Shown here: positions 51,521-64,000 of the stretch, piece by piece | How the letters are laid out: every line of letters starts with the position of its first letter | Position numbering within the stretch: the first letter of the stretch is position 1 | From: Alphaproteobacteria bacterium | GTDB taxonomy: Bacteria; Pseudomonadota; Alphaproteobacteria; SHVV01 | DNA length: 64,000 bases | Reading direction: 5' to 3' | Assembly: GCA_965261735.1 (NCBI GenBank) | Contig: OZ253470.1 | Location: 416,001-480,000 of the forward strand | The notes under the pieces: model-generated | Told to the model about the DNA's origin: nothing | What the model saw: the letters and a program-made list of their open reading frames with translations, nothing else | Databases searched by the model: none | Position numbers and translations under genes: made by a program

Positions 51521-52625
51521 CTTGGCTATCCGGTTTACACCCACACCCACTAGGGCTAGAATGGGTGCAACCCGGATATAGGGGAGCGCGCCATGGATGT
51601 TCTCGACCGCGCCGATCTCCCATTCCCGCATTCGCTACCCGAGTTCCAGCGACTTTTCCCCGATGATGCGGCCTGCGCCGCCTACCTGGAGAAAGCCCGC
51701 TGGGGAGACGGCTTTGCCTGCCCGCACTGCGGCACGGCGGGAGAGCCGTTCCACTTTGAAAACCGCCCTGGCGTCCTGCGCTGCCGCAAGTGCCGCCAGA
51801 ACACCGGGCTGACGGTGGGAACAGTGATGGAGCGTAGCCACACTCCGCTGAACGTCTGGTTCTGGGCCGCTTATCTGGTCGCCAGTCAGACGCCCGGCAT
51901 GTCCGCCGTGCAGTTTCAGCGGCAACTTGGTCTTTCGCGCTACGAGACGGCCTTTCAAATTCTCCACAAGCTCCGCTCGGGCATGGTGCGGCCCAACCAA
52001 GACAGGATCGGTGGACAGCCCAAGAACCATGTTGAGGTGGACGAAACCTGGGTTGGCGGGCGAACGCGTGGGGAAGGCCGTGGTGTTCACCACAAGGTTC
52101 CCGTCTCCTGTGCCATCGAGGTGCGTCATCGAAAGCCGGGCACCAAGCTCGACAACCGGAAAGACGGACGCTATGCCGGACGCGTTCGGCTCGCCGTCGT
52201 GCTCGACCGTAGCGCCGAGTCGCTCTGTGGGTTCGTCGAGAGCACCGTCGCGCCGCGATCGCTGATCGTTACTGACGATTGGAGCGGCTATGCTGGCCTC
52301 GGTAAGCGCGGCTATGAGCACTTCGCTGTTGCCGAGTGTGGTGATCCAGAGGTTGCCGAGCAATACCTGCCGATCATCCATCTGGTTTTCGCCAACCTGA
52401 AGACGTGGCTGATCGGTATCCACCACGGCGTTAGCCACCAGCACCTACAAGCCTACCTCAACGAGTTCACCTTCCGCTTCAACAGGCGGTTCTACCCGTT
52501 CAACGCCTTCCGCTCATTGCTCGGCATCGCGGGCGACACCTCTGCTCCAACCTATGCCGAGCTTTACTCGGGAGAGTGGCGGCACCCTACATGTAGCGGT
52601 CATGGGTGTTAACCGGATAGGCAAG
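51521..52625 (+). mobile_element. IS1595-family element, complete (transposase 51593-52612)
   Basis: IRs CTTG(G/C)CTATCCGG, 8-bp DR GACCGCTC. Confidence 0.95.
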
Positions 52626-53668: not shown

Positions 53669-55054
53669 TTATTTTCGAAAGTCCGCGTAATCGGCACGTT
53701 GCCCGCGATTGCTTTCGTTTGATCTGGTGGCGTCGGTCTCGCGCCAGGTCTTGGCTTGCATTATGCCGAACGGACGGCGGACCGAGTTGGGCGCAATACC
53801 GGCGCGGAGCGCGCTGAGGACGCCGGCCGCTTCCCAGTAGTTTTCGACGACGAATAGCTGGTGGGGTTGCCACGGCAATATCGTCAGATCGTTGCGCATG
53901 ACGCCGCGCCCCTCGCGGATGGCGATGACCGGGATGCCTTGTTCCAGGGCGGCCAGCGTCGGTAGCCCGATGCAGCCATCCGGTAGGATCAGGCACGAGA
54001 CGTTCTCTGCGGTTAGCACGTCGGCGACCCGCATCTCGACCGGGTCGACGACGATGCGTGGGCTTTGCTTAAGTCCTTTGAGTACGCATTGCAGGAACGA
54101 CGACGAGATCGCTTCCGCGGCCATGCGGGGATCGACCCGGCCGGGATCCGCGAACAGGATGTCGCGCGACTCCATCATCGGCGCGTGAGCGGACGGCACG
54201 TCGAAGACGTGCGCGACAGCGTGGGTCAACATCGCCTCGACGCCGCCCCACGGATTGATCATGTCGCCGTTGCTGTCGAAATAGCGGTCGTGATAGCCCT
54301 CCGGCACGTCAATCAGCGATGAAATCGCGATCGCGTCGTAACTGTCTCGCGTCTCGCGCAGCAGCTCGAACAGTCGGCCGATGCCACGGCCCGACCCGGC
54401 GGCCCGGCCCGACGCGGTATAGCTGGCTTCCAACTCCAAAGGTGGGTCGAGTCTATAGATCCCAGCGCATTCGAGCCCATAAATGGCGCGCGCCGCCTCC
54501 ACGGTGTTGAGGGCGAGGTTCTCGATCATCTCGTCCGAACGGGCATCAATCACTACGAGCACGCGATTGGCGCGCACCGGCCTGAGCCCTATGGTTCCCA
54601 TCAACAGGCGGCAAATCACGCTGCCTTCGACGTAGGAGGCGTTCGCGGGAATCTCGTTGATGTCGCTGGCGTTGACGACGTTGGGGTGGGTGATGAGGTG
54701 ATCGCAGCAGGTAGCGAACAGCTGCGCCGCCGGGGTCGCGTCACCGGCGTGGCCGCCGACCTCCGCGCCGATCCCCGTCGGCACTAGATAGACTGCGTTG
54801 AAACCGCTAGCCGATTCGGCCGACCGCCGTTCGAACGCGAAGATCGTGCGCTCGCCTAACCGCTCGACGTCACGCGCGCCGACTAGGCAGCCGATCTCGC
54901 ACTGGTATTGGCCGTCCTCGATGGCGGTGACGGCAAGGCGCACCGGAACCTCCCCCTCCGCGACGCGGAGAGACAGCGCCTTTTCCATGTGCCCGATTAG
55001 ACCGGCGTGACCGGGCGCCAGCGGGATGGCGACGCGCAGTTCACGCAACTGCAC
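53669..55054 (-). CDS. DUF3326 family protein
   Basis: VPTGIGAEVGGHAGDA, LITHPNVVN, YVEGS, HAP, DPRMAAE, CVLKGL. Confidence 0.82.
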   Translation of the reverse strand: MQLRELRVAIPLAPGHAGLIGHMEKALSLRVAEGEVPVRLAVTAIEDGQYQCEIGCLVGARDVERLGERTIFAFERRSAESASGFNAVYLVPTGIGAEVGGHAGDATPAAQLFATCCDHLITHPNVVNASDINEIPANASYVEGSVICRLLMGTIGLRPVRANRVLVVIDARSDEMIENLALNTVEAARAIYGLECAGIYRLDPPLELEASYTASGRAAGSGRGIGRLFELLRETRDSYDAIAISSLIDVPEGYHDRYFDSNGDMINPWGGVEAMLTHAVAHVFDVPSAHAPMMESRDILFADPGRVDPRMAAEAISSSFLQCVLKGLKQSPRIVVDPVEMRVADVLTAENVSCLILPDGCIGLPTLAALEQGIPVIAIREGRGVMRNDLTILPWQPHQLFVVENYWEAAGVLSALRAGIAPNSVRRPFGIMQAKTWRETDATRSNESNRGQRADYADFRK

Positions 55055-56204
55055 GGTCGGCGATCCCAGACAGTTGGGCGAACTCTTCGAACGAATCCTC
55101 GCGGACCAGTTTCAGCGACCCGTCGCGCCGGCGCAGGTAGATCGACGGCAGGCCAACGCCGTTGAAGCGGTGGGCCTTGGAAATCGTGTAGGCCCCCATA
55201 TTGAGAAACGTCAACCGCGACCCGACCGCAAGCGGCATGTCGAACGCGTATTCGCCGAAAACGTCCCCCGCCATGCAGGTACATCCGGCAAGTATATAGC
55301 CGTGCAATCCGCCGGCCACGTGGCCCAAAATGTCCGGTTCGAACTGAAACTCGAAAACCTCGGGCATGTGGTTGACCGCCGTGTCCAAGACCGCGATCTG
55401 GAGATCGTCCCCTCCGAGGATGTCGTGCACCGTCGCCTCGATCGTTCCCGCGCGGCGGACCAGCGCCGCGCCCGGTTCGATGAAGACGTCGAGGCCGAAG
55501 CGTTGGCGGAAGATCGCGACCGCGTCAAAAAAATCGGCTAGGTCGTCCGCCTCGATGAACAGGTAGCCACCGCCCAGGTTGATCCAGTCCATGCGCTCCA
55601 ACACGTGCGGGATCACGTCCTCGATGTGGCGCGCGGTCGCCAGCAGGCTGGCAAAGTCGGTCTCGTCGCAATTGGTATGAAAATGCAAGCCGCCGATGCC
55701 CTCGAGCCGGCCGGGGTCGGACCTGGCTAGCTCGGCCAGATCGTGGACCGGCACGCCGAGCTTGGAATTGCGCCGGCAAGGGTCGTAGCGCTGGTCGCGC
55801 ACGAAGGAAAGTTGCGGATTGATGCGGAGCCCCTGGCGGGTCCGGGACGAGGCCTTCTTACCCAGCCGCTCCCACTGCGATAGCGAGTTGAAGGTCACGG
55901 ACGCGAGGCGGTCGCCGAATACCTCCAAGGTTTCCGCTTTGACTAAGGGGCTAATCAAATGCAAGGGCCCCCCGTCGCCACACAGGCGCTCGATCAGCTT
56001 GAGCTCGTAGGGCGAACTGCAAGCAAAACCGTCCACATTTTGCGACACGGGTTGCAGGACGTCGGACAACGCGCATGCCTTGGGGGAATAGAGCAATTTG
56101 CACGAGGCTTGGTCCGCGATCTCGCGAACCGCCGCCAGGTCCGCTTCCAGGGTCTTTTGGTCGATCACGAAGGCCGGCGTTGCGATGGGCGTCGCCAAAG
56201 TCAT
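55041..56204 (-). CDS. nspC: Carboxynorspermidine/carboxyspermidine decarboxylase
   Basis: TPAFV, GLRINP, YDPC...SKLG, GLHFHTNCE, NLGGG, EPG, HMPEV, TCMAGD, FNGVGLPSI. Confidence 0.85.
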   Translation of the reverse strand: MTLATPIATPAFVIDQKTLEADLAAVREIADQASCKLLYSPKACALSDVLQPVSQNVDGFACSSPYELKLIERLCGDGGPLHLISPLVKAETLEVFGDRLASVTFNSLSQWERLGKKASSRTRQGLRINPQLSFVRDQRYDPCRRNSKLGVPVHDLAELARSDPGRLEGIGGLHFHTNCDETDFASLLATARHIEDVIPHVLERMDWINLGGGYLFIEADDLADFFDAVAIFRQRFGLDVFIEPGAALVRRAGTIEATVHDILGGDDLQIAVLDTAVNHMPEVFEFQFEPDILGHVAGGLHGYILAGCTCMAGDVFGEYAFDMPLAVGSRLTFLNMGAYTISKAHRFNGVGLPSIYLRRRDGSLKLVREDSFEEFAQLSGIADRAVA

Positions 56205-56208
56205 TCCC

Positions 56209-57369
56209 TCAATCCAATATCACGTGCGGAACGAAACGGGCATCCGGGCTCGTCACTAGGTTTCGGTCCTCGCGAATGCACAACCCCGCCGATCGGCCGG
56301 CCACCATCCAACAGCCGACGAGAGGATAGATGCCGTCGAATTCCGGCAGCGGGTGAAACGCCTGGACGATGTAGCCCTCCTCACCATAGGGGCCGCCACG
56401 GCGCAACGCTACGTCGTCTTCGCCATGGATCTCGACGTTCCAACCCTGGCGCGAAAGCAACGGCTTGCGGACAAAATTGGGCGGCAGGTCCGCCGCCCGC
56501 GGATCGCCCTCGAAATAGGAAGGCAGCAGGTTGGGGTGGCCCTCGAACATTTCCCACAAGAAGGGGAGCAGGCCCTTGTTGGCGAGGACCGCTTTCCACG
56601 GCGGCTCGAGGAAATGAACGTCGCTCGTCGGCAGGTAGCGTGCGAAATCCTCGCCCATTATCCATTCCCAGGGATAAAGCTTGAACATCGAGGAAATGAC
56701 CTCGTCTTCGAGGTCGGTGAAGTGCCCCTGCAAGTCGACCCCGATATCCTTCATGGCGATGAAGCGCGTCTCGAGACCCGCATCCCGCGCACAGTCCTCG
56801 AGATAGTCGATGGTCCCCTTGTCGTCCTCGATCTCTTCGATGCAGGCGAAATGAAGCAGTCCCTCGACGCCGAGATTGGCAATCGCGCCGAGCAGGTCCT
56901 CGTAGAGTTCGTTGAACTGATCGCATTCCTTGGGGATGAGGTCCAGGGCCGCCGCCTGTTCCAGCCACAGCCACTGGAATTCCGAGGACTCGTAGAGCGC
57001 CGTCGGCGTATCCGCATTGTATTCAAGCAGCTTGGCGTCGCCGGTGCCGTCGTAGGAAAAGTCCATGCGCCCGTACAGGTCCTTCTCCCGGCCGCGCCAG
57101 CTATCGGCGACATAGTCCCAATAGGACTCCGGAATGCGAAGCCGGCGAAAGATCGTATCGTCGGCCACGGCCCGGTCCAACAGCTCGTGGCACATGCCCT
57201 CGATGGCGTCGCCGCAGCGTTCGATGTCGTCTTCGATCTGCCTCAGCGTGAAGCGGTAATAGACGCTTTCGTCCCAATAGCGCACACCGCCCGCTTCGTC
57301 GCGTTCGAACGCGTGGTCGAGCGCCGTCCGTTCGAGATCCGGGCGCGCGGCTACAGGAACGCGCTGCAT
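56209..57369 (-). CDS. Glutathionylspermidine synthase-like ATP-grasp ligase (YgiC/YjfC family)
   Basis: YWDES, YGRMDF, LEYNADTPT, KLYPWE, EPPWK, HPNLLP, KPLLSRQG. Confidence 0.92.
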   Translation of the reverse strand: MQRVPVAARPDLERTALDHAFERDEAGGVRYWDESVYYRFTLRQIEDDIERCGDAIEGMCHELLDRAVADDTIFRRLRIPESYWDYVADSWRGREKDLYGRMDFSYDGTGDAKLLEYNADTPTALYESSEFQWLWLEQAAALDLIPKECDQFNELYEDLLGAIANLGVEGLLHFACIEEIEDDKGTIDYLEDCARDAGLETRFIAMKDIGVDLQGHFTDLEDEVISSMFKLYPWEWIMGEDFARYLPTSDVHFLEPPWKAVLANKGLLPFLWEMFEGHPNLLPSYFEGDPRAADLPPNFVRKPLLSRQGWNVEIHGEDDVALRRGGPYGEEGYIVQAFHPLPEFDGIYPLVGCWMVAGRSAGLCIREDRNLVTSPDARFVPHVILD

Positions 57370-57414
57370 GCGGAGTGAACGGGGACGGCCGGGCGGGTGC
57401 GCGACGCGGCCGGA

Positions 57415-58107
57415 TCAGGCGCCGCGTTGTGCCCTGAGACGCGCCAGCACGTCGCCGCCCTTCGCGCCACCATCGACGATCCCGGCGGCTTTGAGCTTGT
57501 CGTCGAGACTGACCTCTTCGGTCGAAAGGGCGAGTTCGTTGGCGGCTTCGAACCTCGCAGCGCGTTCCGACTGTTTCGTTTTCAGCCGTTGCAAACTGTC
57601 GAGGGCGCCCTGCATGCTCGAACCGGCACCGGCGTGGCGTGCCGCGACCGCGGCCTGGGCGCGTTGGACCGTTTCCGTCGCCTTGACCGTGTCGACCTGC
57701 TGCTTGAGCCGTTTCAGGTTGGCCTCGGTTTGGCCGACGGCGCGGCGAAGTTGCGCCTCGTTGTTGGCGAAGGACTTGGCGAGGCCTTCTTCGCCGGCGA
57801 GTTCGGCTTCCAGCCCGGCGATCTTGTCAGCGATCTCCGTCGCCAGGGTTTCGTCGCCCTTGTCGAGCGCCTGCATGGCGTAGCCTTCATATTCCTTGAT
57901 CGAGGCCTTTAGGGATTCGACCTTCTTGTCGGCGATCTTGCGCTTGGCGATGATTCCGGTCAGAGCTTCCTTCGAGCGGATGAGTCCGTTATCGGCGTCG
58001 CGGATTTCCTGGTCGAGGATGCGCAGCGCCTGACTGTCGACGATCGCCTCGCCGGCTTCGTTGACGCCGCCGCGGATGGCCGTCGCGACTTTTGCCCAAA
58101 TATTCAA
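57415..58107 (-). CDS. PspA/IM30 family protein (YjfJ-like)
   Basis: TTG start after GAAGGAG; NIWAKVATAIRGG, LRILDQEIRDA, long coiled coil, VLARL. Confidence 0.9.
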   Translation of the reverse strand: MNIWAKVATAIRGGVNEAGEAIVDSQALRILDQEIRDADNGLIRSKEALTGIIAKRKIADKKVESLKASIKEYEGYAMQALDKGDETLATEIADKIAGLEAELAGEEGLAKSFANNEAQLRRAVGQTEANLKRLKQQVDTVKATETVQRAQAAVAARHAGAGSSMQGALDSLQRLKTKQSERAARFEAANELALSTEEVSLDDKLKAAGIVDGGAKGGDVLARLRAQRGA

Positions 58108-58156
58108 ATGCCTTACTCCTTCGTCAGATTCGTTGCGCGTGTTGCGGCGCAAATGT

Positions 58157-58780
58157 TCAAGCGACCTTCTTCAGGTCCGATTGGTAGGCCTCGGCGACCT
58201 GCATCGCGTTGTCGGCCAGTGTTTCGATTTCGAAAATGACCGATTGCAAAATCGAACCCGCGTTGAGTGCGCCGAACAGTTCGTAATAATCCTTTCCGTC
58301 GGGCCCCGTGCGGATACCGAAGGTCGACAACGCCAAGAGCTTGTGGGTCTTCAGGATCGTGGCATTGAATTCGGCGGGGTCCGCCACGTTATCCACGGGC
58401 CAAAGCAGGGTATCGACCAGGATCTGCCCACCGCTGACGCTCATGAGGAGGGGCAGATCGCCGAACTCCGTCATGGTGATGAGAATCCCCGGATCGGCAC
58501 CTTCCACAAGTTCGACGATAAAATCGCCGGACGACGCAGGCTCCGATTGAGCCAACGCCGCACATAGGGTCTCTGTAGTCCAGTTTTCGTCTTGGCTCAT
58601 GGTTCTCTTCCTAATGGTTCTTGGAATGAAGGGAATAACGCCCTCCCTGAGCGCCGCCTGACAGTCCTTGAGGACCCTGACGAATTGGGGTGGAATCCAA
58701 ATCTCGCACTTGACGAAGCCCCGCTCGCGCAAGCGCGCGCGGTAGCGGGACTGATAATAGGATGACTTTTTCGTTGCCAT
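58157..58780 (-). CDS. yjfI: YjfI/DUF2170 protein with an N-terminal basic extension
   Basis: EFGDLP, GGQILV, LKTHKLLALSTFG, YELFGAL, EIETLADN; alternative ATG at 58600. Confidence 0.82.
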   Translation of the reverse strand: MATKKSSYYQSRYRARLRERGFVKCEIWIPPQFVRVLKDCQAALREGVIPFIPRTIRKRTMSQDENWTTETLCAALAQSEPASSGDFIVELVEGADPGILITMTEFGDLPLLMSVSGGQILVDTLLWPVDNVADPAEFNATILKTHKLLALSTFGIRTGPDGKDYYELFGALNAGSILQSVIFEIETLADNAMQVAEAYQSDLKKVA

Positions 58781-58800
58781 CAGGCCAGCCGCTTTGGTCC

Positions 58801-58826
58801 TTTACATGTAACATATAACATGTAAA
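58801..58826. promoter_or_regulatory. Putative operator, two ACATGT boxes
   Basis: TTTACATGT-N8-ACATGTAAA in the divergent intergenic region. Confidence 0.55.
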
Positions 58827-58952
58827 ATAGAAACCAAGAGTTTTTTGATGAGACAGGAACGAAGCGCCGGGAATTGTGCATCGACAGGAGCTTGTAGCCA
58901 GATGCACGAGCGGGTTGGCAAGGACAAGCGCCGATCGACTTGGCTGACTTGA

Positions 58953-60065
58953 ATGCACATCATTCTGTCGCGAGTCGCGAAACGCATCTTCGCCAGGATC
59001 GTCGGGCTGAGTTGGGATGCGGTCCTCGTCCTCGCGGCCTGCCATTTCGCCATATCTTGGGGCGTGATAGCCCTTGCCGGCAGCGAGGAAATAACCGAGG
59101 TCGGCATATTTTGGTACTTTTACCTCACCACTGCCACCACCGTGGGTTATGGCGACTACTCGCCGGCAACCTCGGCCGGACGACTGGTCACCGTGTTGTG
59201 GGTCATGCCCGGCGGCATCGCGCTGTTTACGACGGTCATCGCCAAAGCGGTGCAACAGGTATCCGACCGATGGAGGAAAGGCGTGCGCGGACAATCGAGT
59301 TACGAGAATCTGGCGGCTCACATCGTCATTCTCGGCTGGCATGGCTTCCAGACCCAGCGGATGGTCGATCAACTCCGCGGCGACATTGGCGAAAAGGACC
59401 GTGAAATAGTCTTGTGCACGACCCAGGACATCGACAACCCGATGCCCGATCAGGTGCGCTTCGTCCGCGGCGCCGAGCTCAACACGCCGGACGTGCTGAC
59501 CCGCGCCGGTGTGGCCACGGCCGGGTACATCATCGCCCTCGGCCATGACGACAGCGAGACCCTCGCCGCCGCCTTGGGAGCCGCTGCGGTCAACCACGAC
59601 GCCCATATCGTCGCCTATTTCGACCACGAGAGTTTCGCGAATCTCCTTAAGGCCCATTGTCCGCTCGCCGAATGCAACGTGTCGCTGTCGATCGAGCTCA
59701 TGGTGCGCTCGGCCCAGGATCCCGGTTCGAGCCGCGTCCAGCGCCAATTGCTGTCGACCCTGGAAGGACCGACCCAATTTAGTCTCACGGTGCCGCAGGA
59801 CGCCGACGCGGTGAGTTACGGCGCCCTGTTCGCGAAGTTGAAGGAAAACCACGACGCGACCTTGATTGGCGTCGCCGAAAGCGCCTTGGGCGACGACCTC
59901 ATCCTCAACGCGCCGTCGGGTTACCGGGTCGATCCCGGAACGATTGTCTATTTCCTGGCGGCGCGGCGGATCGAGCCGGGCGAGATCGATTGGCCGGCGC
60001 TAAGGGCAGGGCAGGCCATGCCTCGCATCGCTAACACGTCGCCAAACCCAGGATGCTCGACATGA
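58953..60065 (+). CDS. 2-TM potassium channel with RCK domain
   Basis: TTVGYGD selectivity filter, HIVILGW Rossmann-like RCK. Confidence 0.9.
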   Translation: MHIILSRVAKRIFARIVGLSWDAVLVLAACHFAISWGVIALAGSEEITEVGIFWYFYLTTATTVGYGDYSPATSAGRLVTVLWVMPGGIALFTTVIAKAVQQVSDRWRKGVRGQSSYENLAAHIVILGWHGFQTQRMVDQLRGDIGEKDREIVLCTTQDIDNPMPDQVRFVRGAELNTPDVLTRAGVATAGYIIALGHDDSETLAAALGAAAVNHDAHIVAYFDHESFANLLKAHCPLAECNVSLSIELMVRSAQDPGSSRVQRQLLSTLEGPTQFSLTVPQDADAVSYGALFAKLKENHDATLIGVAESALGDDLILNAPSGYRVDPGTIVYFLAARRIEPGEIDWPALRAGQAMPRIANTSPNPGCST

Positions 60066-60076
60066 TCGGCGGCACT

Positions 60077-60754
60077 ATGAAATCGCTCTTCAAGAGCGGT
60101 GTGCGCGACGTCAGGAACAAATTCTCCAAACGCGGCGAGGACGATGAATTGCCGATGCCGTTGGGCTTGCGCATCGGCGCGGCGGTCGATATCGACACTT
60201 TGCCGTTGCGCATGCACGCCGACGACCTGCATGTCGAGTTGCCGGAGGAAACGATCCTGATCGTCGCACAGGGATTTGTCGATCTCGGCGACGACGCGTA
60301 CGTGCACCGCTATTACGGCGAGGACGACACGATGATCCAGGTGCTCACGGTCAACGGCGTCGCCGACCAGCATGTCGAGGAAGTCACCCTTTATGTGCCG
60401 TACAAAAGCTTCTATCCGGGTAGCCAGGGGGAATGGGCGCAATGGACCGCGAAGGGGGGTAAGATGGGCGCGCCCACCTACCGGTTCGACGACGGCACGG
60501 AGTATGAACGTATTTGGTTCGACACCACGCCGGGCCACGCCGATCCGGTGGTGTTCACCGAGGAAGTTTACGAAGATGCCGAAACCGGAGAGGCGAGCGA
60601 CGTCGTCCAGCAGGTCATGCTGTTCGGCCGCAACCTGGAAGAGGGAAAAAAGAACGAGTACCTCTTGATAACGGTCGAGGCCTACGAAGGGGAAAGGACC
60701 GTGGAGCTCATGGTCGGCGTGGACCTCGACCTCTCCACGGTGAAAGTCATTTGA
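60077..60754 (+). CDS. yjfK: YjfK/DUF2491 family protein
   Basis: PLGLRIG, QGFVDLG, HRYY, YERIW, EYLL. Confidence 0.75.
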   Translation: MKSLFKSGVRDVRNKFSKRGEDDELPMPLGLRIGAAVDIDTLPLRMHADDLHVELPEETILIVAQGFVDLGDDAYVHRYYGEDDTMIQVLTVNGVADQHVEEVTLYVPYKSFYPGSQGEWAQWTAKGGKMGAPTYRFDDGTEYERIWFDTTPGHADPVVFTEEVYEDAETGEASDVVQQVMLFGRNLEEGKKNEYLLITVEAYEGERTVELMVGVDLDLSTVKVI

Positions 60755-60828
60755 CGGGAAAGGTCGGAACCGGCGGCCCAACGAACGTCGCCAAAAACAC
60801 CGGCCGAGAGTCCGGAAAGGGGTTTTGA

Positions 60829-61242
60829 ATGGTTGCGCAGCTCAACCTATATTTGACGGAGTTGCCGGAGTTCTTGGCGTTCCTCGTCGTCTCCCTCATC
60901 CTGATGATCGTATTCGTCGCGGTCTATACCAACGTCACTCGGCACAACGAGATCAAGCTGATCAAGGAGAACTCGGTCGCCGCCGCGGTCGCCTTTTCGG
61001 GCAGCATGATCGGTTTCGCTCTGCCGCTGGCGAGCGCCATGATCAGTTCACGCACGATCCTTGAGATGATCATCTGGGGCGTGGTCGCGCTGATCGTGCA
61101 GATCCTCGTCTATCTCCTCGTGCGGCTGCCGATGCCGCGGGTATCGCAGCGTATCGAGAACAACGAGATCGCCGCCGGCATCTGGCTCGGCGCCTCGTCG
61201 CTCAGCGCCGGCATCCTGAATGCCGCCAGCATGACCCCGTGA
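60829..61242 (+). CDS. yjfL: DUF350 membrane protein (YjfL-like)
   Basis: T.HNE..LIK.N..AAA, GFALPLASA, WG..AL.VQ, GILNAASM. Confidence 0.88.
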   Translation: MVAQLNLYLTELPEFLAFLVVSLILMIVFVAVYTNVTRHNEIKLIKENSVAAAVAFSGSMIGFALPLASAMISSRTILEMIIWGVVALIVQILVYLLVRLPMPRVSQRIENNEIAAGIWLGASSLSAGILNAASMTP

Positions 61243-61258
61243 GAAAGGAGTGCGTTCG

Positions 61259-61789
61259 ATGAAACGCTCGACCATCATCACAGTGGCCCTGCTCGGGGTG
61301 GGCGCACTGGCCCTGACCCTCAGCCTCTTCGGCGAATCGAAAGAAGAAGTCCTCACCTACGAATCGGTGGAGGCGTGCATCGCCGCCGGGGTTCAGGACG
61401 AATCGATATGCCGCGCCGAATTCGACAAGGCCACGGCGTTGCACGAGGAGGTCGCCCCGCGTTACCAAGCATCCTCAGCGTGCTACGCCGAATTCGGCTA
61501 CGACCGGTGTTATCGACGGCGAACCTCCACCGGTTCGCTCTGGTTGCCGTTCATGGTCGGCTACATGCTGGCGCCGCGCGGTCGCTCGGCGTTGATTTAT
61601 TCGCAGCCGCTCTACCGCCCCAGCAACGCCCCCAACCAGTTCCACACCAGCCGCGGCGTCAACGTTGGAAACGTGTCCGCCACCGGCCGCGCGCAGGTTG
61701 CCAAGTCCCAGCTCAGCCAGCCTCAAGCGCGCACCCGCACGGTCGCGCGCGGTGGTTTCGGCGCCCGGTCGAGGAGTTCAGCAAGCTAG
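61259..61789 (+). CDS. yjfM: DUF1190 protein (YjfM/YgiB-like)
   Basis: Four conserved Cys, APRY, PFMVGY, QPLY, TVARGGFG tail. Confidence 0.85.
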   Translation: MKRSTIITVALLGVGALALTLSLFGESKEEVLTYESVEACIAAGVQDESICRAEFDKATALHEEVAPRYQASSACYAEFGYDRCYRRRTSTGSLWLPFMVGYMLAPRGRSALIYSQPLYRPSNAPNQFHTSRGVNVGNVSATGRAQVAKSQLSQPQARTRTVARGGFGARSRSSAS

Positions 61790-62179: not shown

Positions 62180-63544
62180 TCACTTGTTGTCCGCGCGGGC
62201 ACAAACGACGATTCGCCGAGCCACCTCCACATTCATCACCAGGGCAACGACACCCAGGGCGAACAGGGGCTGATTCAACACCGCGCCGAGGAAGATGACG
62301 AACACCCGCACGTCCCGGCCCAGCCGAAAGTATGAGGCGCCTTGCAGTCTTTGCGCCATCAACCCGTCATACTTGTCCGCCGTATAGCTGTTAAGGAACG
62401 ACCCCACAATCGCCGCGAACCCCAGCACGACGGATAGGCTCGTGCCGGTCGCGGCAAATTCGTGCCACATCAGGCCGAACAAGAGAACGGCATCGGCATG
62501 GCGGTCGAGGACCGCGTCGAACCAACCGCCAAACTCGCTCTGCGAATGCTTCAGCCGGGCGATCTCGCCATCGCAACCGTCGACGACCGAGGCCAGTTGA
62601 GCCAACGCGCCACCGGCGGCCAGAGCAGGATAGCCGCTCACAGCCATCAATCCGGCGGCACCGCACGACAGCATCCATGAGATCAGAGAGATTTGGTTGG
62701 GCGTCACCGTTGTGCGCACCAGATAACGGCTCAACCACCGGGAAGCCGGCCGGTTGAGGTGGCGCGACACCGGCCCGTCCCGGGCCTTGCGGCCCTGGTC
62801 GCGCATCAGACGTCGTTCGGCTTCACGCAAGGCCTCGGGCGTGTCCACGTCGAGCCATGACATTCCCGTCACATCGACGGTTCTCGCCCGGCCTTCGCCC
62901 GCCAGCTCCCTGAGCCCGTCGGAAAGCCCATGCTTGTTGCTTGCCGCCGCGCGCTCGAGTCCCTCGAACAGGCCGGGCGTGCAAAGCATGACCCCGGTAT
63001 CGGCAGCGTCCCAAAAGCCAAGATTTTTCTCGATCGCCTGAATGCGTCCGTCGTCGATAGTGACCCGAGTGACATCGTCGAGATCGAAAATGGCATCCTT
63101 GTCGCGGTCCACGGCGAGGCGCATTTCCCCTAATGCGGGTGGATCGTCGGCCAGAGCCCGCGCGATCCCGGGATCGAAAAGATGATCGATCATGACCAGG
63201 AAGAAGGGCGCCTCGCCGGTGCGACCTTTGGCCGCCAGGGCACTGGCTCCGTTGCCACGCTCCCAGTCCCCGGCTTCGATGAAGTCAATCGTGACGGCGC
63301 GCCGCCGGGCGATGTCGAAAAAATGCCCCCTGACCATTTCGGCCTCATGACCGAGGGTGACGAGGAACCGCCGGATGCCGGTGTCCAGCAATGTGCAGAC
63401 GACCCGTTCGGCGAGGGTCAATCCGAGCACCCTGGTCAGGGGTTTCGGTGCCTTGGCTTGCGGCCGAAGTCTCGATCCCCATCCGGCGGCCAGGATCAGC
63501 GCCATCTCGGGTGTCACGCTGGTCAAATCAGTGTTGTTCAGCAC
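62180..63544 (-). CDS. Bifunctional NTP transferase / CDP-alcohol phosphotransferase (IPCT/DIPPS-like)
   Basis: LAAGWGSRL..PKPL, GNGAS, DTG, DVDTP; DGPVSRHLNR, TPNQ, DGCDGEIAR..GGWFDAVLD; start uncertain. Confidence 0.85.
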   Translation of the reverse strand: MLNNTDLTSVTPEMALILAAGWGSRLRPQAKAPKPLTRVLGLTLAERVVCTLLDTGIRRFLVTLGHEAEMVRGHFFDIARRRAVTIDFIEAGDWERGNGASALAAKGRTGEAPFFLVMIDHLFDPGIARALADDPPALGEMRLAVDRDKDAIFDLDDVTRVTIDDGRIQAIEKNLGFWDAADTGVMLCTPGLFEGLERAAASNKHGLSDGLRELAGEGRARTVDVTGMSWLDVDTPEALREAERRLMRDQGRKARDGPVSRHLNRPASRWLSRYLVRTTVTPNQISLISWMLSCGAAGLMAVSGYPALAAGGALAQLASVVDGCDGEIARLKHSQSEFGGWFDAVLDRHADAVLLFGLMWHEFAATGTSLSVVLGFAAIVGSFLNSYTADKYDGLMAQRLQGASYFRLGRDVRVFVIFLGAVLNQPLFALGVVALVMNVEVARRIVVCARADNK

Positions 63545-64000
63545 CCAAAACGTCCGCGATTTCATTGCACAGCTCCCGGCTCGAGGCCGCGACCAGGCTG
63601 ACGCGGTCGGTCAAGCCTTCCGGCGCCGCCAGGGGCGCGCCATCGGGGCCGACAACCCAGCCCCCCGCCTCGATCACCAACCGTGCGGCGGCGAGGTAGC
63701 TTTCCGCAGTCAGACGGCGACGCGCATCCACATGGGCGTCGGTAGCGCCCGCAGCAACCAAGGAGAGGGCTCGAGACGCGCAACCGTAGCACCGCACTCC
63801 CCTGGCGGCAGCCATCAGGCGGGCGAGGCCCGGCGACGGAGAATGATGATTGAGTTCGACCGAGATCGTGGCCCCGGCGATGTTGCGCAGATTCGAGGTT
63901 TCAAGCCGGTCGCTCCTACGCCAGGCGCCGGAGCCCTTGATGGCGATCAGGGGCGTGTCCTGATCGAGCGGCCCAACCAGGGCCGCTTCTACCCAATCGG
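63528..64000 (-). CDS. Inositol monophosphatase family protein (C-terminal part)
   Basis: RCYGCAS..L..VAAG..DA.VD, AAARLVIEAGG. Confidence 0.75.
   Translation of the reverse strand, partial: DWVEAALVGPLDQDTPLIAIKGSGAWRRSDRLETSNLRNIAGATISVELNHHSPSPGLARLMAAARGVRCYGCASRALSLVAAGATDAHVDARRRLTAESYLAAARLVIEAGGWVVGPDGAPLAAPEGLTDRVSLVAASSRELCNEIADVLGAEQH

Follow-up and report, generated by a model that had tools for sequence, protein, structure and literature searches.

In the available text of Ravi et al. (2024; mSystems, PMC11237479), a "third group" of PspA operons, the CesT/Tir-PspA type, is described which includes yjfIJKLMC of E. coli, and it is proposed that such systems monitor polyamines or polyamine conjugates. 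As far as that text goes, the group has in common with the locus reported here a DUF2170 chaperone, a PspA homologue, a ligase resembling glutathionylspermidine (GSP) synthetase, a K+ channel with an intracellular ligand-sensing domain, and DUF350, DUF1190 and DUF2491 proteins. Our locus occupies positions 53669-61789 of a 64,000-nucleotide stretch of DNA (hereafter the window) from an Alphaproteobacteria bacterium (GCA_965261735.1, contig OZ253470.1, positions 416,001 to 480,000), the genome of which is a single contig of 5.03 Mb and 98% complete. The core wiring of PspA, ligase, K+ channel and DUF350/DUF1190/DUF2491 is already in print and is not new; what is new is a two-gene cassette, an NspC-like decarboxylase followed by a DUF3326 protein, which is a recurrent and exchangeable part of this known system.

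Other relatives of the core cluster are better characterized. The E. coli K-12 run yjfI-yjfJ-yjfK-yjfL-yjfM-yjfC carries the same six families without the channel, the decarboxylase and DUF3326, which bears out, for six families, the original prediction that yjfIJKLMC groups them. The same prediction held that the YjfC/YgiC ligases have no established substrate, a statement which is outdated: peptide-spermidine ligase activity in vitro has been published for them (Pederick 2023, as cited by other papers), the RefSeq product name of E. coli YjfC is "peptide--spermidine ligase", and in the available excerpts of the literature both enzymes are reported without GSP synthetase activity. For the bac (biofilm-associated) cluster of P. 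aeruginosa, the available descriptions give phenotypes in biofilm, rhamnolipid and virulence and leave a polyamine-synthesis cassette unmentioned.

From the list of open reading frames (ORFs) and their translations, nine intact ORFs were recognized in the locus, and all nine proteins exceed the Pfam curated cut-offs with matches that run nearly end to end. The features are as follows.

53669-55054, minus strand: DUF3326 protein of 461 aa, the long form with an N-terminal domain of ~85 aa (PF11805, 298.4 bits, profile positions 2-336 of 337)
55041-56204, minus strand: NspC-like decarboxylase of 387 aa, dependent on pyridoxal phosphate (PLP), with PF02784 and PF00278 over cut-off (Orn/DAP/Arg decarboxylase fold, of the alanine-racemase type)
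56209-57369, minus strand: YjfC/YgiC-type ATP-grasp ligase of 386 aa (PF03738, GSP_synth, 438 bits)
57415-58152, minus strand: PspA/IM30-family protein, YjfJ/BacB-like (PF04012, 168.6 bits, residues 17-244)
58157-58780, minus strand: YjfI/BacA, DUF2170, CesT/Tir-like chaperone fold (PF09938, 150.4 bits, residues 66-201)
58803-58824, no strand: tandem palindrome, a candidate operator, conserved in the divergent promoter region
58953-60065, plus strand: K+ channel with two transmembrane segments, TVGYGD filter and cytoplasmic RCK domain (Ion_trans_2, 48 bits; TrkA_N, 24.8 bits)
60053-60754, plus strand: YjfK (DUF2491), soluble, with no hydrophobic segment (PF10679, 189.2 bits)
60829-61242, plus strand: YjfL (DUF350), inner-membrane protein with four transmembrane segments seen as four hydrophobic peaks (PF03994, 130.6 bits)
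61250-61789, plus strand: YjfM (DUF1190), signal-anchored or lipoprotein-type, with four Cys and a basic RGGFG tail (PF06693, 120.9 bits)

The minus arm is transcribed in the order YjfI/BacA, PspA-family protein, GSP_synth ligase, PLP decarboxylase and DUF3326, and the plus arm in the order K+ channel, DUF2491, DUF350 and DUF1190. Only 4 nt (56205-56208) separate the ligase stop from the decarboxylase start, the decarboxylase and DUF3326 genes overlap by 14 nt (55041-55054), and the channel and DUF2491 genes overlap by 13 nt; the predicted arrangement of nine genes in two arms, with the 4-bp gap and the 14-bp overlap, was thus confirmed by the coordinates and the Pfam matches. As in the third group of Ravi et al., the DUF2170 gene (PF09938) stands directly before the PspA-family gene (PF04012), on the same strand and 4 nt apart, and the ligase, the ligand-sensing K+ channel, DUF350, DUF1190 and DUF2491 all lie within 53669-61789. 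Unlike that group and E. coli yjf, the genes of the window are split into two divergent arms, the ligase comes after pspA and not after yjfM, and the NspC-like and DUF3326 genes are added. The main text of Ravi et al. contains none of the terms "carboxynorspermidine", "NspC" and "PF11805", while the "AdoMet decarboxylase and polyamine oxidase" that its available text gives for dyad-less variants may overlap with a second form of the cassette described below. Our literature search for carboxynorspermidine decarboxylase together with PspA, DUF350, DUF1190 or DUF2491 did not return a description of this arrangement, a full-text search on DUF3326 gave no paper on yjf/PspA clusters, and a 2023 JBC paper on SpeD neofunctionalisation mentions, in its available part, no DUF3326-like partners.

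We then examined what the cassette could make. Its decarboxylase belongs, like that of the canonical pathway of carboxynorspermidine dehydrogenase (CANSDH) and carboxynorspermidine decarboxylase (CANSDC), to the CANSDC family: the best PDB match is the CANSDC 9eaf (E 2.3e-73), the top matches are four CANSDC structures, and Lys42, invariant in 35 homologues, aligns with a lysine of 9eaf and is by its position the putative PLP lysine. Unlike that pathway, however, the protein scores well under the NspC equivalog cut-off (275.6 bits against 409.05 for TIGR01047), and Sacchrp_dh_C (PF16653), the hallmark of CANSDH, had 0 matches in the window genome, with matches in the control genomes. The same picture extends to five other chromosomes with the pair, in which Sacchrp_dh_C was not found in four and the only NspC-like gene was below cut-off in all five. 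Because the decarboxylase of the window falls below cut-off and its genome has no Sacchrp_dh_C, the "norspermidine-type" synthesis named in the original prediction is unsupported. The decarboxylase, encoded by the only nspC-like gene in the window genome, needs another upstream enzyme, and the gene that overlaps its own is that of DUF3326. A CANSDH gene usually adjoins that of the decarboxylase; in the window, DUF3326 takes that neighbouring position.

The pairing is not peculiar to the window. A scan of the genome collection gave 307 confirmed DUF3326 relatives, of which the best 80 loci (49-89% identity) were kept and their neighbours were found by tblastn, using the window proteins and AdoMet_dc-family ORFs from those loci as queries. 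A decarboxylase lies directly beside DUF3326 in 78 of the 80 loci, NspC-like in 59 (upstream in 57 and downstream in two) and similar to S-adenosylmethionine decarboxylase (AdoMetDC) in 19, always directly upstream; neither type was present in the remaining two, one of which has only 302 bp of upstream sequence. All ten of the small upstream ORFs tested matched PF02675. In the six tested against the model for S-adenosylmethionine decarboxylase, these AdoMet_dc-like partners scored 22-29 bits, below its cut-off of 75.65, yet they retain the invariant Ser and His, which we take to be the pyruvoyl-forming and the catalytic residue, respectively, so that they probably are not AdoMetDC but decarboxylases that have been retargeted. 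Fusions join DUF3326 to its partners in both orders, as AdoMet_dc-DUF3326 (P0123 and P0256) and as DUF3326-Orn_DAP_Arg_deC (P0272 and P0275). In a DUF3326 tree of 81 rows (quick IQ-TREE, SH-aLRT support only), the type of partner switches at least three times, the two partnerless rows being left out of the count. One chromosome (OZ245330.1) was found to carry two identical copies of the AdoMetDC-like and DUF3326 genes ~370 kb apart.

The exchangeability of the cassette can be read directly from one close relative of the window, the locus L029. The two are 90.1% identical over 5.1 kb, from yjfM through the ligase and up to 73 nt inside the nspC-like gene, beyond which L029 carries an AdoMetDC-like gene and then a DUF3326 gene whose product is 59% identical to that of the window. 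Upstream of its AdoMetDC-like gene, L029 still has a remnant of the nspC-like gene, some 22 codons from the beginning of it (L029:9463-9530 against window 56131-56204), which, judged from the alignment, marks the breakpoint of a replacement of the cassette in place. One position of the cluster can thus be filled by either of two unrelated decarboxylases, accompanied by a DUF3326 of its own, and this is an argument that what the cluster receives from the two cassettes is one kind of product.

The position at which the exchange occurred is directly after the ligase. From its sequence the ligase, present in single copy in the window genome, is a clear YjfC/YgiC orthologue (E 6e-117 to YjfC, PDB 7uk6, over residues 5-384; E 4.7e-112 to YgiC, PDB 7uk8). 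It shares with the glutathionylspermidine and trypanothione synthetases the ATP-grasp GSP_synth fold, a fold that ligates a carboxylate to an amine of a polyamine, but unlike them it has no amidase domain and matches them weakly (E 1e-31 to 1e-38). Of the 80 loci, 19 have a ligase gene at most 1.5 kb from DUF3326, 15 have PspA and 10 have all nine genes, and a compact unit without PspA was found at three. Within the window's own family, three of the eight genomes have DUF3326 and six have the ligase. Among a sample of 401 genomes of the window's class, 11 have DUF3326 and 58 a ligase over cut-off, and the cassette adjoins the ligase in eight, as checked on the DNA (8/58 of the ligase-bearing and 8/11 of the DUF3326-bearing genomes). 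Three of these eight have the NspC-type cassette (the window, a relative with the full nine genes and a relative lacking the channel), two have the AdoMetDC-type cassette with the full cluster, and three, all of one family, have a compact DUF350-DUF1190-ligase-AdoMetDC-like-DUF3326 unit from which PspA, YjfI, channel and DUF2491 are missing. The linkage of cassette and ligase is a recurrent minority variant and not a singleton, so that the suspicion of a linkage unique to this genome could be set aside by its recurrence in the 19 loci and in eight of the 11 class-sample genomes. Regarding the earlier proposal that a polyamine supply is wired to the ligase, the genomic context (shared strand, 4-nt gap, recurrence) stands while the identity of the amine as norspermidine does not.

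DUF3326 itself is encoded by a single copy in the window genome and belongs to a large family (6214 proteins at E<=1e-5 among 8000 scored candidates; 1188 clusters at 50% identity and E<=0.001), and no NCBIfam model matches the DUF3326, DUF2491 or DUF350 proteins. An AlphaFold2 model (predicted local distance difference test score, 94.1) shows a small alpha/beta domain at the N-terminus and then a Rossmann-like core, into which a further alpha/beta domain is inserted; the first strand of the core is followed by a glycine-rich loop. A Foldseek search of the PDB with the model gave one match at E<=0.001 (TM 0.23), and the neighbours returned by the VIA wide comparison were all of generic kinds (Rossmann, GT-B C-domain, lumazine synthase, flavodoxin-like), the best with Z 10.7 across 140 aligned residues; saccharopine reductase, at Z 8.7, was one of many with similar scores. 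A profile search of the PDB with DUF3326 found no relevant solved sequence relative, and the ESM Atlas gave no usable match. A predicted complex of DUF3326 with the decarboxylase scored 0.00 in two runs without controls, which is evidence neither way.

The only experimental data on a DUF3326 protein come from a preprint on the pavABC genes of Paraburkholderia (bioRxiv 10.64898/2026.06.12.731819). According to its available text, formation of N-(5-aminopentyl)pentane-1,5-diamine depends both on PavA (a Rieske domain with an NspC-like decarboxylase domain) and on PavB (DUF3326), and deletion of either abolishes this symmetric triamine intermediate. The window resembles this pavettamine cluster in having a DUF3326 gene beside a carboxynorspermidine-decarboxylase-like domain, a likeness at the level of families. 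However, the preprint gives PavA an N-terminal Rieske oxygenase domain and PavC as a JmjC-like hydroxylase, whereas the window decarboxylase is a stand-alone protein of 387 aa and the Pfam scan found no Rieske or cupin/JmjC match in the nine cluster proteins; with neither a Rieske fusion nor a PavC-like gene among the nine, we rejected the assignment of the locus as a pavettamine cluster. From the pavABC genetics combined with the absence of CANSDH, we infer that DUF3326 carries out a C-N bond-forming step, of which either the product or the substrate is acted on by the decarboxylase.

Our best explanation of the locus as a whole, to which we give somewhat better than even chances, is that a mobile amine-synthesis cassette feeds the ligase of a yjf cluster. 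According to this explanation, a yjf/bac-type envelope-stress cluster would have acquired a mobile two-gene amine-biosynthesis cassette at the end of its ligase arm. DUF3326 would perform the C-N bond-forming condensation that is canonically assigned to carboxy(nor)spermidine dehydrogenase, and the CANSDC-family decarboxylase would then remove the carboxyl group, to give a polyamine, probably a triamine of undefined chain lengths. The cytoplasmic ligase would couple this amine to a peptide carboxylate, and the resulting peptidyl-polyamine, or the free polyamine, would have its effect at the membrane, in concert with the DUF350 and DUF1190 proteins, the PspA polymer and the K+ channel.

Several observations weigh against this explanation. 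At 59 of the 80 loci the pair has no ligase with it, so that in general the cassette does not serve the ligase alone. In the class sample, neither a decarboxylase nor a ligase was detected by tblastn near the three DUF3326 genes that are most distant (41-45% identity), the Pfam scan of two of these three loci found no decarboxylase among the neighbours, and the cyanobacterial DUF3326 adjoins fed3/DUF650; since these distant and cyanobacterial members lack the partner, the pairing rule is a property of this DUF3326 clade and not of the whole Pfam family. The structural neighbours of the modelled DUF3326 are generic, and its chemistry is not readable from the predicted fold. An IS1595-family transposase (window 51593-52612, plus strand) lies ~1 kb beyond the end of DUF3326, and L029 has a DDE_Tnp_1 transposase in the equivalent place; transposases flanking the cassette are compatible with simple hitch-hiking. 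Finally, an adjacent canonical speD-speE pair elsewhere in the window genome could supply spermidine to the ligase.

Much of this would suit the strongest of the alternatives, to which we assign a fairly small chance: that an independent mobile polyamine pathway landed beside the yjf cluster and that the ligase uses housekeeping spermidine with no dedicated coupling to the cassette. The many ligase-free pairs, the two transposases and the canonical speD-speE genes all speak for it, as does the fact that yjfIJKLMC of E. coli works without the cassette. An independent landing does not sit well, however, with the strand that the cassette shares with the ligase and the gap of 4 nt between them, or with the finding that two unrelated cassette types occupy the same post-ligase position and were swapped in place while the rest stayed ~90% identical. 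The eight of 11 DUF3326-bearing genomes of the class sample in which the cassette stands beside the ligase, including the compact ligase-centred units, count against it as well.

A second alternative, which we hold to be less probable still, is that the decarboxylase and DUF3326 make a non-polyamine amine, as a block of cofactor or secondary metabolism, with the ligase forming an amide. A possible parallel is MfnA/MfnD, where tyramine is ligated to glutamate in methanofuran synthesis, and the gene of 4-(hydroxymethyl)-2-furancarboxaldehyde phosphate (4-HFC-P) synthase (MfnB) does lie within 3 kb in four of the 19 AdoMetDC-type loci, one locus (L043) adding a class-III aminotransferase. DUF3326 is also fused to carrier-protein and AMP-binding (adenylation) domains in P0274 and to NNMT-type methyltransferase and SET domains in P0273, and no fold match fixes its chemistry. 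However, among solved structures the PLP partner most resembles carboxy(nor)spermidine decarboxylases, the DUF3326 experiments of the pavABC preprint concern, in its available text, a triamine, the characterized ligase orthologue is described in the citing literature as using spermidine, and L043 itself also carries PotA/PotD-like transporter genes. An AMP-binding gene was, in addition, seen near the pair at the locus L024.

The envelope proteins and the channel bear on where the product of the cassette might act. YjfM has a single N-terminal hydrophobic segment (residues 9-27) and a tail with 11 K+R and no D+E, its RGGFG motif is conserved in 15 of 15 cluster homologues, the window included, and reads RGGYG in E. 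coli YjfM, and a lipobox cysteine is found in the printed N-terminus of nine of the 14 listed homologues. The predicted location of the tail is accordingly outside the cytoplasm. Six Chloroflexota loci that have neither ligase nor PspA (L024:11461-12528, L025:14349-15413, L027, L031, L032 and L035) have, by tblastn, genes for Ion_trans_2 channels with Slo-like RCK domains 0.3-3.1 kb downstream of the NspC-like and DUF3326 genes, which Pfam confirmed in both of the two tested, and they are a second, independent association of a channel with the polyamine module. Polyamines block some K+ channels. The proposal that the RGGFG tail of YjfM is the acceptor of the polyamine, or that a conjugate gates the RCK channel during membrane stress or phage attack, is very improbable, because the tail is predicted to be extracytoplasmic and the ligase is soluble and ATP-dependent, and also in view of the variation of the residues after RGGFG and of the terminal residue and of the lack of a PADLOC defence match for the nine proteins, despite the conserved RGG[FY]G motif, the constancy of DUF1190 as a ligase partner (yjfM-yjfC, ygiB-ygiC, the compact units) and the RCK channels downstream of the pair in Chloroflexota. 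The unit that travels with the cassette is DUF350-DUF1190-ligase, a hint, within the explanation that we prefer, that a small peptidyl-polyamine is synthesized intracellularly, with DUF350 and DUF1190 as the envelope proteins that handle it.

As to a role in defence, PADLOC 2.0 models gave no match for eight of the nine cluster proteins and two marginal matches for PspA (E ~1e-4), probably from coiled-coil similarity, so that the suggested involvement in phage attack found no meaningful match to lean on. A defence-like gene pair was nevertheless seen elsewhere in the survey. At six loci of several phyla (L020, L022, L039, L043, L051 and L070), an AAA_15/AAA_21 ATPase gene and then a second gene lie directly upstream of the AdoMetDC-like and DUF3326 genes, at a distance of about 0.4-2.7 kb from DUF3326. 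A weak HNH match was found for the second gene at three of the four loci scanned (L039, L043 and L051; not L070), the ATPase pair matches the Septu proteins PtuA and PtuB in the two loci scanned against PADLOC (L043 and L070), and a gene for 4-HFC-P synthase lies further upstream in four of the six. The conserved position of a defence pair next to the cassette across phyla is odd.

The remaining features concern the two divergent arms and their regulation. YjfI of the window has a 65-aa basic N-terminal extension that is absent from the 133-aa E. coli YjfI. Like P. aeruginosa bac, it matches BacA over its full length, the N-terminal extension included (model NF050185, residues 1-206), with a PspA-family protein next to it, and it matches the BacA-type structure 8q8o (E 9.7e-30), but unlike P. 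aeruginosa BacA it scores below the equivalog cut-off (231 bits against 300). The PspA-family protein was rejected as a classical PspA equivalog (19 bits for TIGR02977 against a cut-off of 242.95) and is a YjfJ-type paralogue. Its TTG start at 58152 is probably called ~15 codons too early, because residue 17 is the first that Pfam matches and, at most loci, the homologue spans 0.93-0.95 of the query.

The two arms are separated by a divergent intergenic region of 172 bp, in which the tandem palindrome, of pattern TACATGTWAYAYNTWACRTGYR, stands about 22 nt upstream of yjfI. All 14 of the aligned loci, the window among them, have kept it, it is the only such site in the window (0 expected) and the only one in the 5.03-Mb genome at <=2 mismatches, where a control pattern had 0 matches, and it overlaps a promoter-like TTTACA-16-TAAAAT on the plus strand. 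A possible role of the palindrome is that of an operator for the cluster, to which the N-terminal extension of YjfI/BacA might bind. The 65 N-terminal residues of YjfI have a sub-threshold MazE-like match (E 0.014, 15.8 bits against 22), and DNA binding by this part of the protein is a guess. A scan for terminators gave no excess of sites over shuffles. Just after yjfM and convergent with it, a gene at 62180-63565 on the minus strand encodes a fusion of a nucleotidyltransferase and a CDP-alcohol phosphatidyltransferase, which may be a phospholipid head-group enzyme beside a membrane-stress cluster.

A bolder extension of the cassette-fed ligase, to which we would give only a limited chance, is that DUF3326 founds a new class of polyamine synthase, which makes the secondary-amine bond instead of carboxy(nor)spermidine dehydrogenase and works with either a PLP- or a pyruvoyl-dependent decarboxylase, and that the cluster of these marine Alphaproteobacteria is a self-contained pathway. 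A bespoke triamine made by the cassette would be ligated to a peptide by the YjfC-type enzyme and the product handled by DUF350 and DUF1190; along with the K+ channel and the PspA polymer, it would serve to bring back cation balance and membrane integrity once the envelope has been damaged. The N-terminus of YjfI would set expression by binding the unique palindrome.

In essence, a cluster variant with genes of its own for the amine serves as a natural experiment and offers a direct route to the natural substrate of the YjfC-type ligases. DUF3326 is a candidate for the missing enzyme of a polyamine route on three grounds: it is paired with a decarboxylase at 78 of the 80 closest loci and fused to one in either order, CANSDH is absent, and the genetics of PavA and PavB point the same way. 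Such a route would extend widely, through marine Chloroflexota (SAR202-type), Alphaproteobacteria and other phyla.

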